DNA from: an uncultured Candidatus Saccharibacteria bacterium
GTDB lineage: Bacteria; Patescibacteriota; Saccharimonadia; CAILAD01; BJGX01
Direction of reading: 5' to 3'
Length of the DNA: 43,472 nucleotides
NCBI GenBank assembly: GCA_964397085.1
Contig: CAYNHH010000001.1
Coordinates: 1-43,472 of the forward strand
Part shown: piece by piece, positions 451 to 11,254 of the stretch
Position numbering within the stretch: the stretch's first letter is position 1
Layout: each line of letters starts with the position of its first letter
Made by a program: the position numbers and the translations under genes
Notes under the pieces: model-generated
What the model was told of the DNA's origin: nothing
Databases searched by the model: none
What the model saw: only the letters and a program-made list of their open reading frames with translations

Positions 451-2646
451 CTAGACTTCTATTACTACAGGCAACACAATTGGACTACGCTTTGTCACCT
501 TGTAGAGCAAGTTACTGAGCTCATCACGCATACGTGCTTTTACTATCGGTGAGTTGGGTGGAGTCTTAGGGTTGCGGTTAGCAAAGATATTTTTGACAAT
601 GGTACGTGAGCTGTTCAGTAACTCTTCATTGTCTTTCACATAGATAAACCCACGGCTAATAATATCTGGACTAGTCACAAGCTTACCAGTCTTACGATTG
701 ACAGTAGCAATTACCGTAAAGATGCCATCACTAGCCATGGCTAGTCGGTCTTTAAGTACTATGTCTTGCACATCACCAATACCACTACCGTCAATCAATA
801 CTGAGCCAGACTGTACGATTGGACCAAGCTTCACTGCTCCATCCATGGCCTCAAGTGTTTGACCATTCTCTATCACAAAGACATTTTCTGGTTTCACTAC
901 CCCACCACGCTTGGCAATCTCGGCATTGTGTACCATATGATGCACTTCACCGTGAATTGGTAAGTAATACTTTGGTCGTACCAAAGAAATCATCTCCTTC
1001 ACTTCTTCATAGTATGCATGACCAGATGTGTGCATAATTCCTAGATCATCAAAAGTTCTAGTAGCCTGTTGATACACGTAAGGTCCCCATCGAAATAGGT
1101 CATCTACCATACCCCATACTGACTTTTCGTTACCAGGAATAATCGAGCTTGAAAGTACCACTACATCTGAGGCCTTGAGCTTGATGTCTTTGTGCTCACC
1201 CTTGCCCATACGTACTAGGCCAGAGTTTTCTTCACCTTGGTGACCCGTGGTAAGTACTGCTACTTCACCATCCTGATATTTGCTGACATCAGCAGCCTTA
1301 ATAAGTAGACCCGGTGGTACTTTGACATACCCAAGCTTCACTGCTATTTCCATGTTACTCAGCAAACTTCGTCCAGCCAGTGCAAGCTTACGCTTAGCCT
1401 TGTGCGCAGCATCTACAAACACCTGAATACGATCTACTTGTGAAGCAAATGAGCTAATAATCACCCGCTTGTTGTAGTTACGAATAAATATCTCATCGAG
1501 AGTCTCAATAATCTCTTGTTCCGTTGGGCTCGTGCCCATGTTTTCACAGCTCGTACTATCACACATAAGCATAAGCACGCCTTCGTCACCAAGCTCTTTT
1601 AAGCGAGCCTTGTTGCTAGGCTTACCGCTCAGTGGATCGTCATCAAAACGCCAATCCCCAGTATTAATAAGTGTTCCCACTGGTGTATGAATAGCAATCG
1701 AGCAAGCGTCTGGGATAGAGTGCGTGATACGGATAAACTCAATACTAAATGCACCAAGCTGTATCTTTTCACCACTATCTTGGTCAACAGTGCGGATCTC
1801 TGGCTTGAAAGGCAACTTGTATTCTTCTAGTTGTCTTTCAATAAACTTGGCCGTAAAATTAGCTGCATATATTGGAGCTGGTAGCTTTGGCAAGATAAAT
1901 GGTATACCACCAACATGATCCATGTGAGCATGAGTAATCAAGTGAGCACGGATTTTGTGCTTTCGTTCTTCAAGATAAGTAGTATCAGGAATAATGTAAT
2001 CAATACCCGGTGTTTCTGGCCCAGGAAACATAAAGCCAATATCCATCACAATAATGTCGTTTTCGTACTCAAGCGCCATCATGTTCTTACCGATCTTATC
2101 TAGTCCACCAAGAGGAATAATCTTGAGCTTACCGGCATCTGTCTTGCTCATAGACACAGGCTTAGCTGTAGCCTTTACTTCTGTAGCACCTGGCTTACCA
2201 TTGGCATTAAAGCTACCTTCAGAAAATACTGCTGGGCCTCTATCGTATTTACGACGCTGAGCAAAGTTGTCACCGCCCCTACCTACACCGCGTGGGCCGC
2301 TTCCGCCGCCTTGTCGATTTTTGTTGTTGTTTCGAGAACGGTTTTGATTATTGCCATTGTGACTAGGCTTTTGCGTACCATTAGCTGCGGCAGCTTTGGC
2401 AGCAGTACCTGCTGGCATCAATTTTGGCGTAGGTGCTTTTGCGGTAGCTTTGGCAGCTGTGCCCGCTGGCATTAGCTTGGGAGTAGGTGCTTTTGCTACA
2501 GGAGCAGTCTCTTGTTTGGGCGCAGGCTTTTTAGCTGACATACCCAAATCTTGAGCAGTCAGTGGTCGGCTATTAAATTGTTTTTTATTGTTTGAATCCA
2601 TTAGTTTGTAATGATTTCTCCTTTGTTTTGTATCGAGTGGATACAA
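451..2646 (-). CDS. rnj: Ribonuclease J (metallo-beta-lactamase/beta-CASP) with a low-complexity N-terminal extension; start codon uncertain (ATG at 2601 is an alternative)
   Basis: 731-aa ORF with the HAHMDHVGG metal-binding motif and the beta-CASP architecture and length typical of RNase J. The first ~170 aa are K/A/P/G/N-rich. Confidence 0.9.
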   Translation of the reverse strand: MYPLDTKQRRNHYKLMDSNNKKQFNSRPLTAQDLGMSAKKPAPKQETAPVAKAPTPKLMPAGTAAKATAKAPTPKLMPAGTAAKAAAANGTQKPSHNGNNQNRSRNNNKNRQGGGSGPRGVGRGGDNFAQRRKYDRGPAVFSEGSFNANGKPGATEVKATAKPVSMSKTDAGKLKIIPLGGLDKIGKNMMALEYENDIIVMDIGFMFPGPETPGIDYIIPDTTYLEERKHKIRAHLITHAHMDHVGGIPFILPKLPAPIYAANFTAKFIERQLEEYKLPFKPEIRTVDQDSGEKIQLGAFSIEFIRITHSIPDACSIAIHTPVGTLINTGDWRFDDDPLSGKPSNKARLKELGDEGVLMLMCDSTSCENMGTSPTEQEIIETLDEIFIRNYNKRVIISSFASQVDRIQVFVDAAHKAKRKLALAGRSLLSNMEIAVKLGYVKVPPGLLIKAADVSKYQDGEVAVLTTGHQGEENSGLVRMGKGEHKDIKLKASDVVVLSSSIIPGNEKSVWGMVDDLFRWGPYVYQQATRTFDDLGIMHTSGHAYYEEVKEMISLVRPKYYLPIHGEVHHMVHNAEIAKRGGVVKPENVFVIENGQTLEAMDGAVKLGPIVQSGSVLIDGSGIGDVQDIVLKDRLAMASDGIFTVIATVNRKTGKLVTSPDIISRGFIYVKDNEELLNSSRTIVKNIFANRNPKTPPNSPIVKARMRDELSNLLYKVTKRSPIVLPVVIEV
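2386..2493 (-). repeat. In-frame 54-nt tandem duplication in the rnj N-terminal extension
   Basis: KAPTPKLMPAGTAAKATA followed directly by KAPTPKLMPAGTAAKAAA (residues 52-87). Confidence 0.85.
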
Positions 2647-6670: not shown

Positions 6671-6952
6671 CCCATATAAATCATTGAAATTCGGATTTTC
6701 CTTTTTAATCTGATCAAACTTCCAATCTCGATGCCAATTCTTGATTTGTTTCTCTCTATTTATTGCATCTTCTGCGCTTGAAAGTACTTCAAAATACACA
6801 AGCTTATCTACATTATACTTACTTGTGAAGCCTAATACTAAATGACTTTTATGTTCATATATTCTTTTCACTAAATCGCTTGTGACACCAACATACAAAA
6901 CCGAGTTTGTTTTATTGGTGAGTATGTAGACATAATAATTATTCAGCTTCAT
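6656..6952 (-). CDS. GIY-YIG nuclease family protein (small, stand-alone)
   Basis: YYVYILTNKTNSVLYVGVTSDLVKRIYEHK matches the GIY..YIG..R..EH core; 98 aa. Confidence 0.85.
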   Translation of the reverse strand: MKLNNYYVYILTNKTNSVLYVGVTSDLVKRIYEHKSHLVLGFTSKYNVDKLVYFEVLSSAEDAINREKQIKNWHRDWKFDQIKKENPNFNDLYGEILK

Positions 6953-6965
6953 AGAATAAAAGATT

Positions 6966-6993
6966 GAGATCCTGAAGTAAATTCAGGATGACG
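6966..6993. repeat. Right arm of the perfect 28-bp inverted repeat flanking the GIY-YIG gene
   Basis: gagatcctgaagtaaattcaggatgacg. Each arm is itself a hairpin (ATCCTGAA/TTCAGGAT, 5-nt loop). Confidence 0.9.
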
Positions 6994-7074
6994 GACTGTA
7001 AATAGCCTAACAACAAAATTACACTGACAAGATTTGGCCGTTGATCATTCTTCCTTTAAAATCCCCTGCAGAAA

Positions 7075-8124
7075 CTACTGCTTCTGGCTGGGATTTTTGA
7101 ATTTTTTTGGGCTCTGCTCAACCTCACTTGTTGACTCTACTACTTCTTCAGCCTTGTCTTCGCTTATAACTTCGCCCGTTTCGGCATCTTTGACACCTTC
7201 TTGTGTGAGTTCTACACCTTTTTTGGCAAGTTTTTCGGCAATAGTCTCGGCTTTACCTGACTCTGATTTACTTGATTCAACTTTTGTCTTTGGGTCAGTT
7301 AGCTTTGGAGTTGGGCGAAATTCACCACTTGGAGTACTACCTGCAACAGAGCTCTGATTATTACTATTGTGACTAAATAGTGCCTGGACTATCTCTTGTT
7401 GCTTAGCACCACCACTCATCATCTGAGCAGCAATAGTCAGACTCTTAGCACTCGTATTTGGCGCAGTAAACCCTTCAGTATTACTCATAATACCGGTAAG
7501 AAGTGCAGTAGCCACATGATAATCAATCATACCTTGAGCTACTGACTCAATAATACCTACGAGCATTTCACACACGCTACTTGCCTGTGGCTCAATATAA
7601 TTCACACTACCGTATTGCTCGTTGCTTCTATGCGCATCAATATTTATCAGGTGTATACCATCAAATATGGTTGGGTTCTGTTCTAAAATTGAGTCAATTT
7701 TAGCTATCTGACTCACACCAAGTACAATTACTAGATCAAATTTGTATGCGCCATAATCAAAAGTTGCATCTTGAGCAGTAAAATTACCCGAAAACGGCGA
7801 TACTACTACTTCAATATTGTCTTCATTGACTTCATACCGTAGCTTATCTACCTCTACCTTGCTCGTATCAAGGCGAATCACAAAATCACGTATACCAGAT
7901 AGGTCACGGCTAATGTGTCGAACATCAAGTACCTTATTAGACTTAGGAAATTCACCAGTCATAATAGCGCTCACTTGCTTGCCAGCGCGTTCCAAAATAA
8001 GCTCGAGGGCAACCATAGCACCGAGCTGGTCATCATTAGGCTGTTTACCGGCCACAAGTAGTATGTGGTTGGCTTGTTTTATCAGTTCTACTGCTTGTTG
8101 TTTGGGGGTCAAATCTTGTTGCAT
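7075..8124 (-). CDS. DHH-family phosphoesterase (NrnA-like oligoribonuclease/pAp phosphatase) with a ~100-aa acidic/K-rich C-terminal tail
   Basis: DHH-type motif INIDAHRSN and a DHHA1-like region with SGGAK; 349 aa. The tail is low complexity (S/E/K/T). Confidence 0.75.
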   Translation of the reverse strand: MQQDLTPKQQAVELIKQANHILLVAGKQPNDDQLGAMVALELILERAGKQVSAIMTGEFPKSNKVLDVRHISRDLSGIRDFVIRLDTSKVEVDKLRYEVNEDNIEVVVSPFSGNFTAQDATFDYGAYKFDLVIVLGVSQIAKIDSILEQNPTIFDGIHLINIDAHRSNEQYGSVNYIEPQASSVCEMLVGIIESVAQGMIDYHVATALLTGIMSNTEGFTAPNTSAKSLTIAAQMMSGGAKQQEIVQALFSHNSNNQSSVAGSTPSGEFRPTPKLTDPKTKVESSKSESGKAETIAEKLAKKGVELTQEGVKDAETGEVISEDKAEEVVESTSEVEQSPKKFKNPSQKQ

Positions 8125-8162
8125 AAATGTGATATTTTGGTTAATAATCTAATTGATTGAGT

Positions 8163-8191
8163 ATTATACCAAACAGAAGTAGTATTGTCAA
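8163..8191 (-). promoter_or_regulatory. Consensus sigma70 promoter for the DHH phosphoesterase gene
   Basis: Minus strand reads TTGACA-N17-TATAAT (tgtcaa 8186-8191, attata 8163-8168). Confidence 0.6.
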
Positions 8192-8220
8192 GCTTATGAG
8201 TGGTTATATTTCTTTTGATA

Positions 8221-8253
8221 AATAAAAAGGTTATTAGATTTCTCTAATAACCT
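8221..8253 (-). terminator. Rho-independent terminator after the PNK-like kinase gene
   Basis: 11-bp stem AGGTTATTAGA/TCTAATAACCT (8228-8253), followed on the minus strand by UUUUUAUU. Confidence 0.7.
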
Positions 8254-8270
8254 TAGGTAGTAATTGCAAA

Positions 8271-8753
8271 TCAGGTCAAAGCAAACGTAGGCACATACAG
8301 CTGGTCAAAGCCTTCGTACACGCGCGGCGGGTCAGCCAACAAAGCATGATGCATGCGCTCCATACTAGTCTGTGGCACCTTGCGATCACGTTTGGCAATC
8401 CGCTCAAGACACACCTCAAGCGGTGTCTGCATCCAGACCCCCTTGATGAAGCCATCAGGCCCCATCACAGAGCGCAAGAACTCCAGTAGCCCAACTCTAT
8501 CGAGCTTCTTGGCATTGGTGGCATCAAAAACCAACACCTTACCATCTTGCAAAGCCTTCTCTGCCCGATCGTAAGCCAGCTTCCAGACCTCCGCGTTCTT
8601 GCTCTGGTCACCAGCATTACCGGTGAGCTCAGCACGAATGTCATCAGGACAGACCACGCACTTGTTCTGTGTGCGAGCCAACTGGTACTTGATGTAGTCA
8701 GACTTGCCAGATGCAGGAATGCCAATCATCACGATTGCACGCATTACCGACAT
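8271..8753 (-). CDS. P-loop kinase resembling the kinase domain of polynucleotide 5'-kinases (AAA_33-like)
   Basis: Walker A GIPASGKS, a downstream PDDIRAEL segment (catalytic-Asp position of T4 Pnk-type kinases), DATN, and RD/R lid residues. Strong SD AAGGAG 4 nt before the ATG at 8753. GC-richer than its flanks. Confidence 0.55.
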   Translation of the reverse strand: MSVMRAIVMIGIPASGKSDYIKYQLARTQNKCVVCPDDIRAELTGNAGDQSKNAEVWKLAYDRAEKALQDGKVLVFDATNAKKLDRVGLLEFLRSVMGPDGFIKGVWMQTPLEVCLERIAKRDRKVPQTSMERMHHALLADPPRVYEGFDQLYVPTFALT

Positions 8754-8820
8754 GTTTCTCCTTGGTTGTGAGGTGCGAATGGGTTTGATCAACTTGATCA
8801 ACGACGTACTACAATAGCAT

Positions 8821-8848
8821 AACTTCTTGAAAAAGAGAAGTTTTTTTT
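8821..8848 (+). terminator. Orphan plus-orientation terminator-like hairpin
   Basis: AACTTCT/AGAAGTT stem followed by a T8 run. No plus-strand gene lies upstream, so its function is unclear. Confidence 0.35.
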
Positions 8849-8934
8849 ACTTTCCCGAACAGAATCGATTCATTCGAATAAACTCTGGTCGGGCCCCGAC
8901 CTACCGGTAAAGATAGGTCAGAGCAGTGGTGAGA

Positions 8935-9066
8935 CTAACGATGACGCCAAGTAGGCACCACCCCAGCCTCCTCGAGCTCTTCGTCAGACATACACCCGAT
9001 GAAGATCATGACAACGAACATTGCGATCAGCACAATCAGTGCTGCTACAACAAAAACGATTGCCAT
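8935..9066 (-). CDS. Possible 43-aa single-TM peptide (weak call)
   Basis: MAIVFVVAALIVLIAMFVVMIFIG then an acidic tail. The start codon lies inside the hairpin 9065-9085, and the longer track ORF overlaps ssrA. Confidence 0.2.
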   Translation of the reverse strand: MAIVFVVAALIVLIAMFVVMIFIGCMSDEELEEAGVVPTWRHR

Positions 9067-9085
9067 ATGAACCCCCAGTTCATAT
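9065..9085 (-). terminator. Hairpin about 50 nt downstream of the ssrA 3' end (possible terminator)
   Basis: ATATGAAC/GTTCATAT 8-bp stem with a 5-nt loop. The U-run is displaced by 8 nt. Confidence 0.35.
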
Positions 9086-9134
9086 ATGGATTTGGATGGT
9101 CTCCTGTCTACCCTCTCGAGTAGAAAGGAAAAAA

Positions 9135-9480
9135 GTGGAGCTGGAGGGAATCGAACCCTCGTCCAGTGCATCGTCACAATACTCGCTACAACCATTCCCA
9201 AATTTCGGCTTTATGGCCACCTTGGAGTTGGGTCTCCGCACCATCTAGTCTTTGCTAGAAGTCAGGCTGTCTTTGCAGCTCGTCATTAGTCTTTCCTAAA
9301 GTCAGTCTCTGCTCCTGTTGCCGAGCTGCAGAGTCGAGGCTCCGAATCTGGATAAATCCTTTTCAAACCGTTGTCTTTTCAGGCGGCGGTTTAGGTAATG
9401 GCCCTGTTTAACGTGTCTGAGCCATCAATACACGGGTTGCAAATACTGCTTTGGGAACACTGTCGAAACCGATCAGCCCC
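9135..9480 (-). ncRNA. ssrA: tmRNA (transfer-messenger RNA)
   Basis: The minus strand starts GGGGCUGAUCGGUUUCGAC and ends GGACGAGGGUUCGAUUCCCUCCAGCUCCAC. The 7-bp acceptor stem has the G3:U alanine identity pair. T-arm GAGGG-UUCGAUU-CCCUC; CCA is not fully encoded. The tag reading frame was not confidently assigned. Confidence 0.9.
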
Positions 9481-9487
9481 TGCTTAG

Positions 9488-9518
9488 ATTCTAGAGTCTA
9501 GATGTTAGACGCTAGCAA
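9488..9518 (-). promoter_or_regulatory. Candidate ssrA promoter
   Basis: -10 TAGAAT (attcta 9488-9493) sits 7 nt before G1 of the tmRNA. Weak -35 TTGCTA with a 19-nt spacer. Confidence 0.4.
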
Positions 9519-9548
9519 AATCCAAAAAGGGACCAACCAAGTTCCTAC

Positions 9549-9573
9549 AAAAAAATCCAAATTTATATTTGGA
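9549..9573 (-). terminator. Canonical rho-independent terminator on the minus strand, just upstream of the ssrA promoter
   Basis: Stem TCCAAAT(9556-9562)/ATTTGGA(9567-9573) with a 4-nt loop, followed on the minus strand by U7 (A-run 9549-9555). Confidence 0.7.
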
Positions 9574-10039
9574 TACATACACTGTTTAAAGTACTCTGAG
9601 CTTTTTTAGAAGATTTTTGATTTAGTCTCAGCATGAATTCTCAATAAAATTAAGAACTCGTGTTGAGACCCTCCGAGACCCCAACGAATTGGTGCCTCGA
9701 AAGGCAATGAGTGTTTGCTTGATGGTTTACTGGCTTACGCCACCAAGCCTTGTTTTAGTTGTAAGCAAGGTACAGGAGTACTCCACTCCAAAACTCTCGG
9801 ACGACACATACACGCTGTTCACACATCCTAAGATGTGGCCAGGCCGCCACTATTTGCAATCACACCAAGCGGCGCTCTATCTTGACCTTACTCAAGAGAG
9901 CGGCCAGCAAGGTGTGATTGTCGAGCTTAGTGATCCCATTGTAGGAAGCTTGGCGTTTCACGGCCGAGCTCACAGGGGAAGGTATCACTTATTTCACCGC
10001 TAGGGTCCCCCAATGCGCATTGTATACTCACCCTCTCGG

Positions 10040-10078
10040 GTCACCTGTTGATGTCACCTTGTGGTGTCACCCCGTTCG
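10040..10078. repeat. Three tandem 13-nt units each starting GTCACC
   Basis: GTCACCTGTTGAT / GTCACCTTGTGGT / GTCACCCCGTTCGAT, with starts at 10040, 10053 and 10066. Confidence 0.75.
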
Positions 10079-10625
10079 ATGTATGGGTTTGTACTCCCAT
10101 CAAGCGCGCTACTCTGATTTCTCCCTACCCCCGCACCAGCATTATTAGGTGCAGCACTTATTTCGCCCGACCTAAGCCGTTTCCATAAGTGTCTGGTGTG
10201 CTCACCAGAAGGTCTTTCGCGGTTGCGATTTCGTTACAGTATGCCTGCGTGCATCGGCCCGAGCGTATCGGGTAGCGCGTACGGCTTACAGTCCCCCTGT
10301 AACAAGGTTCCTCGTTTCGGTCGTGCCTACTCCTGAAGAAACCTTTCTAACTTGTCTGAAAGCCGTAGCTTTCGAATAAAAACCAGAGATAATATCGACT
10401 TTAAGAAATGAAGAGATTGTATAAAATATGTGTACTCTATTATTTCAAAGGAAAATGTCTAGTCTTTATTCGAAAGCCAAAGGCTTTATATATAAGGTTC
10501 AAATGATGTGCCTGTGCACAACTGCCCGCCCACATGTATAGCTATTCACCAATCTGCCCAAAAATATTTAAATATGTGGCACTGGTAATTTGCTAGTTGC
10601 GAGCAAGGCAACTGTGTACAGATTT

Positions 10626-10677
10626 CAAGTTTCGCTCTTTCAGAGCTCATCAGTACTGGTAGTAACCAGTAGACTTG
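10626..10677 (-). ncRNA. Hammerhead self-cleaving ribozyme, type III topology
   Basis: Minus strand reads 5'-CAAGUC^UACUGGU-UACU-ACCAGUA-CUGAUGA-GCUC-UGAAA-GAGC-GAAA-CUUG-3'. All invariant core nucleotides are present. Stem I is 7 bp, stem II 4 bp (G10.1:C11.1) and stem III 5 bp, with a GUC cleavage triplet (cut after C10672). Confidence 0.85.
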
Positions 10678-10927
10678 CACCCCGGGATTACTCCCAGGGC
10701 TTACTAACTTCCTCGCAATGAGGCACAACACCAAGTTAGTCGGTGTGCTCTATTTGGTAATCGCCGAGCTGGCGGGTGGCGGTATTGTCACGACTCCTAG
10801 AAGCCGGCTAATTTACGTCTTGGTGCTAGACGTCAGAATTCTGTTGCTAGGCTCTGATAGGCTTTTGAAAGCCTGCCCCTGTATTGATGCAGCGCGGGCT
10901 ACTAACGGGCCAATACACCCGGAATTT

Positions 10928-11161
10928 TTACCTGTTCACCAGGGCCATCTCGCGGAAGATCCGCTGGTTGGCTTCTGCGAGCCTTTCACTCGCCTCAGAC
11001 TCCCTTTGCTCGAGCGACTTGAACGGGTCGATCCCGTTCTCCACGCACCAGCAGAAGTCCTCGTAGTCCATCTCTTCGACGGGCACAAGAGCGGACATGA
11101 CATGGGGCATTTCATTGGTGATCATACCAAACATACTTAATACACTCAGTAAGACCACCAA
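10928..11161 (-). CDS. Hypothetical small acidic protein (start uncertain; several in-frame ATGs)
   Basis: 77-aa GC-rich ORF directly downstream of promoter 11226-11254. The opposite-strand 140-aa ORF is R/L/P/H-rich and looks like a shadow. Confidence 0.45.
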   Translation of the reverse strand: MVVLLSVLSMFGMITNEMPHVMSALVPVEEMDYEDFCWCVENGIDPFKSLEQRESEASERLAEANQRIFREMALVNR

Positions 11162-11225
11162 ATATGCCCTGCTCTTTTATAACGTACAAATGCTCTTTGT
11201 TAGAACAACTCAAGCATCGAAAAGT

Positions 11226-11254
11226 AGTATAGCAAACTTTAAATAAAATGTCAA
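11226..11254 (-). promoter_or_regulatory. Consensus sigma70 promoter with extended -10
   Basis: Minus strand reads TTGACA-ttttatttaaagtttgc-TATACT (17-nt spacer, TGc extended -10). Confidence 0.6.

Follow-up and report, generated by a model that had tools for sequence, protein, structure and literature searches.

What does a hammerhead ribozyme do when it stands, on a bacterial chromosome, directly ahead of more than 1 kb of DNA with no credible open reading frame (ORF)? This question is raised by the minus strand of a 43,472-nt stretch of DNA from an uncultured Candidatus Saccharibacteria bacterium (contig CAYNHH010000001.1), referred to here as the window, in which a promoter, a small ORF, a type III hammerhead, ~1.12 kb without coding signal and a weak terminator follow one another ahead of ssrA, the gene for transfer-messenger RNA (tmRNA). 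An earlier reading of the same DNA, made from its letters alone (hereafter the sequence-only reading), had described these parts as one unit that yields a noncoding RNA with a ribozyme-made 5' end. Our analysis supports that interpretation overall, and we put the probability at roughly 65% that these parts form a transcription unit, conserved in one Saccharibacteria clade, in which the hammerhead would free a ~1.1-kb structured RNA. That the unit is transcribed throughout and that its RNA cleaves in vivo, is stable and works in trans, we infer from the sequence and its conservation.

Recurrence and noncoding character of the region

The arrangement of promoter, small ORF, hammerhead and long RNA is present in the window and in nine related genomes (loci L009-L013, L015, L016, L062 and L069). 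The loci were collected by nhmmer and blastn searches with positions 11260-9481 as the query against Saccharibacteria loci, which matched L009-L013, L015, L016 and L017; others were reached through homologues of a TrmB-like regulator encoded nearby (L062 with its full unit, L063, L060 and L068) or through a homologue of the small ORF (L069). Most alignments extended from query positions 573-608, at the hammerhead, to ~1640, in the 3' domain of the RNA, and the promoter stretch (query 1-37) was conserved in the relatives as well. Homologous noncoding DNA occupied the same syntenic slot (trmB-like ... AAA_33/DHH) in L009, L010, L011, L012, L013, L015, L016, L062, L063 and L069. Overall, at least ten related genomes at the species level have the unit, in each case behind the same promoter. 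In L066 and L067 the trmB-like gene is immediately followed by AAA_33, showing that the unit is absent in some lineages. Three Logan contigs were 99-100% identical to the window where they overlap it. The sequence-only reading had also stressed the position beside ssrA, which indeed lies at 9480-9133 and is frequent in the relatives, being found downstream in five of the nine with a full unit; it is not obligatory, however, as L010, L011 and L062 carry the unit without it.

That 10671-9549 holds no credible ORF was borne out: the ORFs there are short or antisense, six-frame ORFs belonged to no families, and an antisense ORF overlapping the 5' edge (10718-11140) had no Pfam match. In two species pairs with ~78% identity, indels were multiples of three in 3 of 13 and 1 of 17 cases, and mismatches fell evenly over the three codon phases (for example 87, 84 and 85), so there is no codon periodicity. 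The homologous regions of the relatives are likewise conserved, structured and noncoding, rather than intact genes or pseudogenes. Based on its compensatory helices, described below, and the lack of a coding signature, the body is best read as a conserved, structured noncoding RNA.

Decaying pseudogene DNA, or an element acting at the DNA level with inverted repeats for replication or recombination, could account for the long inverted repeats in the region, for the observation that both strands fold better than shuffled sequence and for the several assemblies that break at the unit. It does not account for the lack of a coding signature on either strand and of families among the six-frame ORFs, for a sense strand that is consistently the more stable and the richer in G-U pairs, or for conserved single-stranded loops and a ribozyme on one strand, and we give this explanation next to no credence. 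The sense strand folded 20-67 kcal/mol better than the antisense strand in all eight species compared, at a G+U fraction near 0.5; this advantage, together with the domain D1 model scores given below, also led us to reject an element on the antisense strand.

Domains of the RNA

As plain MAFFT alignment of sequence groups A and B misaligned the outer stems of D1 and C2, a covariance model was used for D1 and per-species folds for the C1/C2 hairpins. Domain D1 (10623-10506), identified by folding and the covariance model, is an irregular hairpin of ~118 nt whose top consists of CAGUGCY, a loop of AUAUUUAAA and RGCASAUUG. It forms one long hairpin in every species, with folding z-scores of -4.8 to -7.2 across eight species, and its lower stems, which cannot be aligned between two sequence groups, are still paired. 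The model, built from four sequences, found exactly one sense-strand copy in every other locus, and in the four training species it scored 99-128 bits on the sense versus 31-35 bits on the antisense strand. Across ten sequences 93.8% of cells were paired and 23 of the 36 pairs were compensatory, compared with 28-41% and 5-9 pairs in slid controls. The following domain, D2 (10487-10360), is a long, A+U-rich and optional hairpin that ends in GCUUUCA; it is predicted in the window, L010-L013 and L069 and is absent from L009, L015 and L016.

The strongest sequence conservation in the RNA was that of the core hairpins C1 and C2 (10343-10233; GGGACUG and AUGCGCG...CCGAYACGNUCGGRSCGAUGCA), a block with 80-87% identity to L016, L009 and L015. 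Two hairpins form here in each species around an invariant inner motif, with outer stems of differing sequence (e.g. GUUACAG/CUGUAAC, GCUGCAG/CUGUAGC and CCUGUAG/CUACGGG). Chance hits aside, the most conserved motif, CCGAYACGNUCGGRSCGAUGCA in C2, was found only in these Saccharibacteria among 185,579 species genomes of GTDB, and scans with it of IMG/VR and of metagenome contigs of the Joint Genome Institute returned 16 and 8 chance hits, respectively, and no true homologue.

Downstream of this core lies a central multi-helix domain (10232-9866), absent in L016, for which a sequence-only MAFFT alignment of four species predicted 90 pairs, some in helices closing ~240 nt. In this alignment 92.7% of cells were paired and 28 pairs were compensatory, a level reached by none of 500 shuffles, and slid controls gave 31-40%. 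The domain is closed by the E hairpin, GCUCUC...GAGCGCCGC (9920-9857). Next comes a variable segment (9856-9708) that is unalignable across species and is occupied by unrelated sequence in the near-identical strain L002. The 3' domain (9705-9627) consists of two neighbouring hairpins around a conserved GGAGGGUCUCAACA, for which 33 pairs were predicted, seven of them compensatory; this form is conserved in L002, L010, L013 and L016, and a second variant is found in L009, L012 and L015. An 18-mer of the domain had two chance hits in GTDB.

The body resembled no RNA family in Rfam. Its covariance models gave no match to it at E-values up to 10 in the window, or up to 1 or 0.1 in L009, L010, L013, L060, L062, L063 and L068, and this included the models for OLE, GOLLD, ROOL, raiA, HEARO, RNase P, group I and II introns, 6S and signal recognition particle (SRP) RNA. 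At gathering scores and at permissive E-values alike, the only matches in the window and seven relatives were to tmRNA, tRNA and Hammerhead_3. A divergent RNase P RNA, 6S RNA, SRP RNA or group II intron was also considered and rejected, as no Rfam model matched and the conserved motifs, as read from the sequence, do not fit.

The hammerhead ribozyme and the ends of the unit

The hammerhead named in the sequence-only reading was confirmed by a match of 10679-10624 to the Rfam model Hammerhead_3 (RF00008; 40.3 bits, E = 1.2e-6). Its catalytic core is complete (CUGAUGAG ... CGAAAC, GUC^U) and invariant in eight species, and the predicted cut after GUC falls between 10672 and 10671, the same coordinate as proposed earlier. 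Loops close stems I and II whereas stem III is open, the layout of type III hammerheads. Across the eight species 98.2% of cells were paired and 9 of 14 pairs were compensatory, which none of 500 shuffles reached (slid controls, 25-49%), and in every relative locus examined the core stood at the 5' edge of homology with a covarying stem II. The copies in the relatives scored 27-45 bits (E = 1e-6 to 0.1). The window itself has a single hammerhead, and the Rfam scan detected no second ribozyme of a known class at the 3' end of the RNA.

Further type III hammerheads were noticed elsewhere in the relatives: at 336-383 in L009, ~1577-1625 in L015, ~1020-1068 in L016, ~4005-4050 in L065, 5230-5287 and 1919-1994 (minus strand) in L010 and 1253-1321 (minus strand) in L063. 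Their positions are either intergenic or at the 3' end of an unrelated gene, mostly behind a large hairpin, and one of the L010 copies is immediately ahead of a terminator. Punctuation by hammerheads seems to be common in the clade.

The promoter proposed at the head of the unit is present at 11254-11226 (TTGACA-17-(TG)TATACT). It is of the sigma-70 type, matches 11 of 12 consensus positions in addition to the TG, and was the top-scoring site of the region in a promoter scan. The same type of promoter heads the unit in all relatives and occurs once per ~20-kb locus. No terminator-like site was found by scanning the minus strand from 11226 to 9574, an interval that includes the hairpin-rich spacer between the ORF and the hammerhead, where the sequence-only reading had likewise seen none and where termination would have separated the two. 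Neither the window nor L016, the minimal homologue, has an internal sense-strand terminator or strong promoter; the sole further sense-strand promoter match in the window (9/12; 10461-10434) is within the window-specific loop of D2.

The 3' end of the unit is less sharply defined. The stem and U-tract described earlier are there, as a stem of 8 bp (9574-9567 paired with 9562-9555) and, behind it, U7 (9555-9549), and the structure was recognized from sequence and folding. It is not the canonical terminator it was taken for, however: the stem has only two G-C pairs, and is thus weak and was not listed by the terminator scan. It is conserved in L009, L015 and L016 with one compensatory pair change, and the homologous terminator of L016 passes the scan, so that the sense strand of that locus has a single promoter and a single terminator. 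Between the terminator and ssrA, where a promoter for ssrA had been claimed, no promoter-like site was detected in the window or in L016, and ssrA could be reached by read-through from the unit.

Variation among relatives

The order of the parts is constant: promoter, ORF, leader hairpin, G+C-rich hairpin, hammerhead, D1, D2 (optional), C1/C2, central domain (optional), E hairpin, variable segment, 3' domain in either variant, extra small ORFs (optional; L010-L013), terminator and ssrA (optional). The length of the RNA varies from 0.75 to 1.5 kb across the relatives, and L016, without the central domain, represents a minimal form of ~730 nt from cut to terminator. The earlier view of a ~1.1-kb noncoding RNA needs the correction that the RNA consists of a string of separable domains, which come and go from one species to another.

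Three relatives are particularly informative. In L063 (7352-7833) the same promoter (TTGACA...TACACTAC) is followed within ~10 nt by D1 and then by D2, C1 and C2, both ORF and hammerhead being absent, up to the point where the contig ends inside the RNA. In view of this layout, the RNA would be the constant element and the ribozyme would be needed only where a gene stands between the promoter and the RNA; the hammerhead, in other words, appears to serve to free the RNA 5' end. L063 can be considered a natural control, having a transcription start in place of the ribozyme.

The second is the strain L002, which is 99% identical to the window down to 9857 and 98% identical again beyond a replaced segment. 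Positions 1984-2763 of L002 are a divergent replacement of window 9856-9084, comprising the last third of the RNA, its terminator and the whole of ssrA together with the next ~50 nt. The left breakpoint coincides precisely with the point at which the E hairpin ends. Within the replaced part, 82% identity is retained over a 49-nt block around GGAGGGUCUCAACACGAG, and the L002 tmRNA shares ~77% identity with its L016 counterpart. The replacement looks like the result of recombination with a distant lineage.

In the third, L068, a more distant and complete Saccharibacteria genome of 1.19 Mb, the parts are rearranged (6772-9650). A C2-like motif lies in a separate unit of ~480 nt that has a promoter and a terminator to itself. 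Another promoter is followed by a small ORF, a 78-nt tmRNA-like element (7837-7914; Rfam tmRNA, 44.8 bits) with the tRNA-like domain only, and two similar hammerheads (cores at ~8312 and ~9172, of which the first alone reaches E <= 1 in Rfam) around ~860 nt of structured RNA with a weak match to the central domain. A 122-amino-acid gene with a Shine-Dalgarno sequence comes after the second hammerhead. In L068 the hammerheads would thus act as punctuation around RNA, a layout that matches the proposal of Perreault et al. for hammerheads around non-constant genes (PMC3088659).

This modularity raises the question of whether the transcript is one functional RNA at all. It could instead be a precursor, an "RNA island" from which the hammerhead, RNase III acting at the long hairpins D1 and D2 and RNase P acting at ssrA would produce several independent small structured RNAs and mRNAs, with ssrA perhaps its last cistron by read-through. 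The separable domains (L016 without the central domain, the optional D2 and the two 3'-domain variants) are what such a precursor might look like, as are the ~480-nt C2-like unit of L068, the ~860-nt RNA between its two hammerheads and the tmRNA fragment in the same unit; small ORFs with Shine-Dalgarno sequences are also found inside the units of L010, L011, L012 and L013, and the weak terminator and the lack of a promoter-like site before ssrA in the window and L016 would agree with read-through. On the other hand, a precursor to independent products would not readily explain an order of domains that is identical in all species or helices of the central domain that span ~240 nt; L010, L011 and L062 carry the unit without ssrA, and no processing site besides the hammerhead could be recognized. 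We therefore regard processing into several products, the main alternative to our proposal, as rather unlikely, while taking it seriously.

The small ORF and the leader

An ORF of 77 amino acids at 11161-10928, noted earlier, exists as a frame open from a TTG codon, but its start is more probably the ATG at 11125, which would give a protein of 65 amino acids (11125-10928), because of its N-terminal similarity to the protein of L012 and the sizes of the other cassettes. A word-indexed search with the ORF found only itself, whereas exhaustive searching with HMMER added two small proteins as homologues, P0124 (56% identity, E = 2e-13) and P0125. The gene for P0124 occupies the corresponding slot of the Saccharibacteria contig L069, behind an AAGGAGG Shine-Dalgarno sequence, and is followed there by leader, hammerhead, D1 and D2. 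The family shares the core LVPV..DYEDF.W.V.NG.DPF. The codon differences counted for the window ORF (26, 18 and 30 by position, with 10 synonymous codons) fit a weakly constrained coding gene, and all three differences in the small ORF of strain L001 are non-synonymous. The protein had no match to Pfam, PHROG or Protein Data Bank folds, and its AlphaFold model (predicted local distance difference test score, 77) has two helices.

The slot accommodates at least four unrelated families of about 63-80 amino acids: Arg-rich (L009, L015 and L016), Zn-ribbon-like (L012, L013 and L060), Cys-rich (L010 and L011) and that of the window. Nine of the small ORFs were compared with Pfam and PHROGs and none matched. 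This exchange of genes ahead of one RNA bears on a further alternative, namely that the long RNA is in itself functionless and is merely the structured 3' region of a small-ORF operon, in which the hammerhead tunes mRNA stability or insulates the ORF. Hammerheads in prophage operons provide a precedent (PMC3088659), and other hammerheads of the relatives are at gene 3' ends or intergenic. Against this explanation, the ORF varies and the RNA is conserved behind at least four unrelated ORF families, L063 retains the RNA with neither ORF nor hammerhead, and covariation extends over at least 600 nt 3' of the ribozyme. We consider a functionless 3' region improbable.

The spacer between the ORF and the hammerhead is indeed hairpin-rich, and includes a conserved leader hairpin of its own (10857-10833) with the loop GCCUAGCAACAGAAU. 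Most relatives keep the leader motif GCAACAGAA at this place, and that of L011 and L069 differs by one base. The 12-15 nt of the leader loop (GCCURGCAACAGAA) recur as the loop of a hairpin within the tmRNAs of the clade (AGCCUGGCAACAGAA), at 9321-9313 in the window and at 2526 in L002, 7208 in L009, 7720 in L012, 8464 in L013, 7943 in L015, 7456 in L016 and 999 in L017. The 4-bp tmRNA stem around it covaries (CUGC/GCAG, CCAC/GUGG, CCGC/GCGG and UCGC/GCGA). Since no sequence complementary to the GCAACAGAA loop was found in the units (one tmRNA excepted), it is possible that the two loops share a contact with a protein or the ribosome, and their similarity hints at a binding partner in common with the RNA of trans-translation. 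Directly 5' of the hammerhead is a G+C-rich hairpin (10699-10680), present in all relatives with differing sequence, which we suppose would form the 3' end of the ORF mRNA once the ribozyme has cut and might protect it.

A conserved acidic protein of ~52-65 amino acids (MDETNDL...EICLEFF.MGHESGH.CA...VSAGYL), with a strong Shine-Dalgarno sequence and no family match, is encoded 3' of the RNA body in L010 (9053-9250), L011 (6065-6262) and L013 (7953-8144). In L068 (7649-7806) its gene is 5' of the hammerheads.

Proposed mechanism and comparison with known systems

We propose that a strong sigma-70-type promoter would transcribe a gene of ~65 amino acids, the structured leader, the hammerhead and ~1.1 kb of folded RNA (D1, D2, C1/C2, central domain, variable segment and 3' domain), with transcription expected to stop at the weak terminator before ssrA. 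The hammerhead would cleave itself between 10672 and 10671, leaving the ORF mRNA with the G+C-rich hairpin at its 3' end and a 2',3'-cyclic phosphate, and releasing a ~1.12-kb RNA with a 5'-OH that begins with the body of the ribozyme and continues directly into D1. The ribozyme would in this way substitute for the transcription start of the ORF-less relative, providing a defined 5' end and uncoupling the RNA from an exchangeable gene. Most likely, the released RNA acts as a stable, trans-acting structured RNA.

Several points weigh against this proposal. The hammerhead of the window scores below the Rfam gathering score (40.3 versus 48.5 bits), as do all copies in the relatives, and its loops I and II are short, so that fast cleavage in vivo may not be assured. 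The covariation counts come from 4-10 related sequences with phylogeny unaccounted for, and the D1 alignment was fitted to its own covariance model. Since the terminator is weak, the true 3' end could be in or beyond ssrA. Lastly, domains come and go between species (the central domain is missing from L016 and D2 is optional), and the separate C2-like and hammerhead-flanked units of L068 speak against one indivisible functional molecule.

Self-cleavage within a bacterial transcript that gives a downstream RNA with a 5'-OH is known from the glmS ribozyme, where the 5'-OH product is an mRNA that is thereby marked for decay by RNase J1. The unit described here shares with glmS a self-cleaving ribozyme in a bacterial transcript and a downstream 5'-OH RNA, as predicted, but differs in that this product would be a conserved noncoding RNA, presumed stable, and in that no role for a ligand is indicated.

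Among large structured bacterial RNAs, GOLLD and ROOL are often near tRNA genes. The RNA has in common with OLE, GOLLD, ROOL and raiA its size, its many conserved and long-range helices, its noncoding nature, a narrow phylogenetic range and adjoining genes for stable RNAs such as tmRNA and tRNAs (PMC12286853; PMC12968392). It is set apart from them by a 5' end predicted to be ribozyme-made, by its modular domains, by its likely co-transcription with a protein gene and by the lack of any covariance-model match, even at E = 10. We conclude that it most likely represents a new family among the "large ornate" RNAs of bacteria, and that it adds a candidate to the few very large structured RNAs known from them.

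Compared with the hammerheads of RF00008, the ribozyme has the same core (CUGAUGA...GAAA), the GUC triplet, closed stems I and II and an open stem III, and all three stems covary; it differs in that the copies here are sub-threshold, in its chromosomal, non-prophage setting and in its position directly 5' of a conserved large RNA instead of between genes or in a viroid-like repeat. In bacteria, hammerheads have been documented at the flanks of exchangeable genes, where they process polycistronic RNA (PMC3088659). The prophage-operon hammerheads of Perreault et al. (2011; PMC3088659) similarly punctuate a longer transcript, next to small genes that have no assigned function and are inconstant between genomes, but in the unit described here it is a noncoding RNA of ~1 kb, and not a gene, that stays constant beside the ribozyme; there is no phage context, and the window has a single ribozyme in place of the bracketing pair of L068. 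Retrozymes and viroid-like circles (PMC5680766; PMC7761336) also combine a type III hammerhead with a highly paired noncoding RNA of 0.6-1 kb, and the bracketed ~860 nt of L068 have the layout that would yield ligatable 5'-OH and cyclic-phosphate ends. The gene described here, in contrast, is chromosomal and vertically inherited, and is neither a repeat nor a replicon; with one hammerhead and a terminator, the window could not give rise to a unit-length circle.

The biological role of bacterial hammerheads is largely unknown, and this locus offers a concrete candidate for one, the making of an RNA 5' end. Our survey of the literature on hammerheads, Saccharibacteria, the Candidate Phyla Radiation (CPR) and structured RNA found no description of such a unit, so that a large modular structured RNA with a ribozyme-made 5' end has apparently gone undescribed so far. 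We would give even odds to the more specific formulation that this is an undescribed class of modular RNAs of 0.75-1.5 kb, confined to one Saccharibacteria clade, whose 5' end is made either by a hammerhead or by transcription initiation and whose promoter is shared with a rapidly exchanged cassette of ~65 amino acids. If true, this would be the first bacterial self-cleaving ribozyme dedicated to the maturation of a stable noncoding RNA. CPR genomes are ~1 Mb in size, and at that size keeping a 1-kb RNA gene with a near-consensus promoter amounts to a major investment; the small-protein slot and the loop shared with tmRNA could link the RNA to trans-translation or to interactions between bacterium and host.

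Genomic setting and neighbouring genes

Pfam matches in the window were to housekeeping genes of a chromosome (PolA, TruB, a DHH phosphoesterase and a TrmB-like regulator), and the DHH protein had 11 homologous loci with 68-84% identity, most of them in metagenome-assembled genomes of Saccharibacteria, Saccharimonadia or Patescibacteria. The window is therefore a piece of a Candidatus Saccharibacteria (CPR) chromosome and not of a phage. A locus search with the AAA_33 neighbour protein yielded no related loci, and a neighbour protein of 158 amino acids had a single homologue, on a short contig in which the downstream sequence differs.

The unit differs in composition from its surroundings, with a G+C content of 50-57% over 11100-9700 (the A+U-rich stretch of D2 excepted) compared with 26-37% in the flanking spacers and 26-43% in spacers and genes taken together. 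This higher G+C, the exchangeable small ORFs, the mosaic replacement of 9856-9084, including ssrA, in L002 and the frequent occurrence of bacterial hammerheads in prophages would all suit a mobile element (for example a prophage, a satellite or an ssrA-associated integrative island) that left the unit behind as a remnant or carried it as cargo. No integrase, phage or plasmid gene is found in or beside the unit, however, and it had no match in phage records (BLAST) or IMG/VR contigs; moreover, it is 5' of ssrA and not at the ssrA 3' end, and its chromosomal neighbours are constant across species. A mobile origin is thus very improbable in our judgement, and we favour a resident chromosomal unit that would produce the structured RNA.

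Several independent assemblies end inside the unit (L001, whose end corresponds to window position 10557, L003, L060, L063 and L069), one of them at the apical loop of D1. The breaks are probably caused by the long hairpins or by strain variation, and the unit may be under-represented in metagenome-assembled genomes as a result. A second promoter-driven, G+C-rich and ORF-free stretch of ~450 nt was observed straight after the trmB-like gene in L063 (~6780-7270) and L060 (~6780-7260). It is conserved between both contigs and has no Rfam match, and the matching position in the window is filled by ORFs of 92 and 158 amino acids.

The ssrA gene downstream of the RNA (9480-9133, minus strand) was identified with Rfam model RF00023 (90.3 bits). 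An ARAGORN run did not report it, although Rfam scores it at 90 bits. It ends in ...CUCCACUU, and CCA is not encoded. In the window and L002 the first pseudoknot of the tmRNA is followed by GCC GCC UGA, and the frame of the tag is ambiguous. Immediately 3' of ssrA, a gene with a GGGGG Shine-Dalgarno sequence encodes a hydrophobic peptide of 43 amino acids (MAIVFVVAALIVLIAMFVVMIFIG...; 9066-8935, minus strand), which is annotated in L002, where the near-identity of the two strains picks up again just ahead of it.

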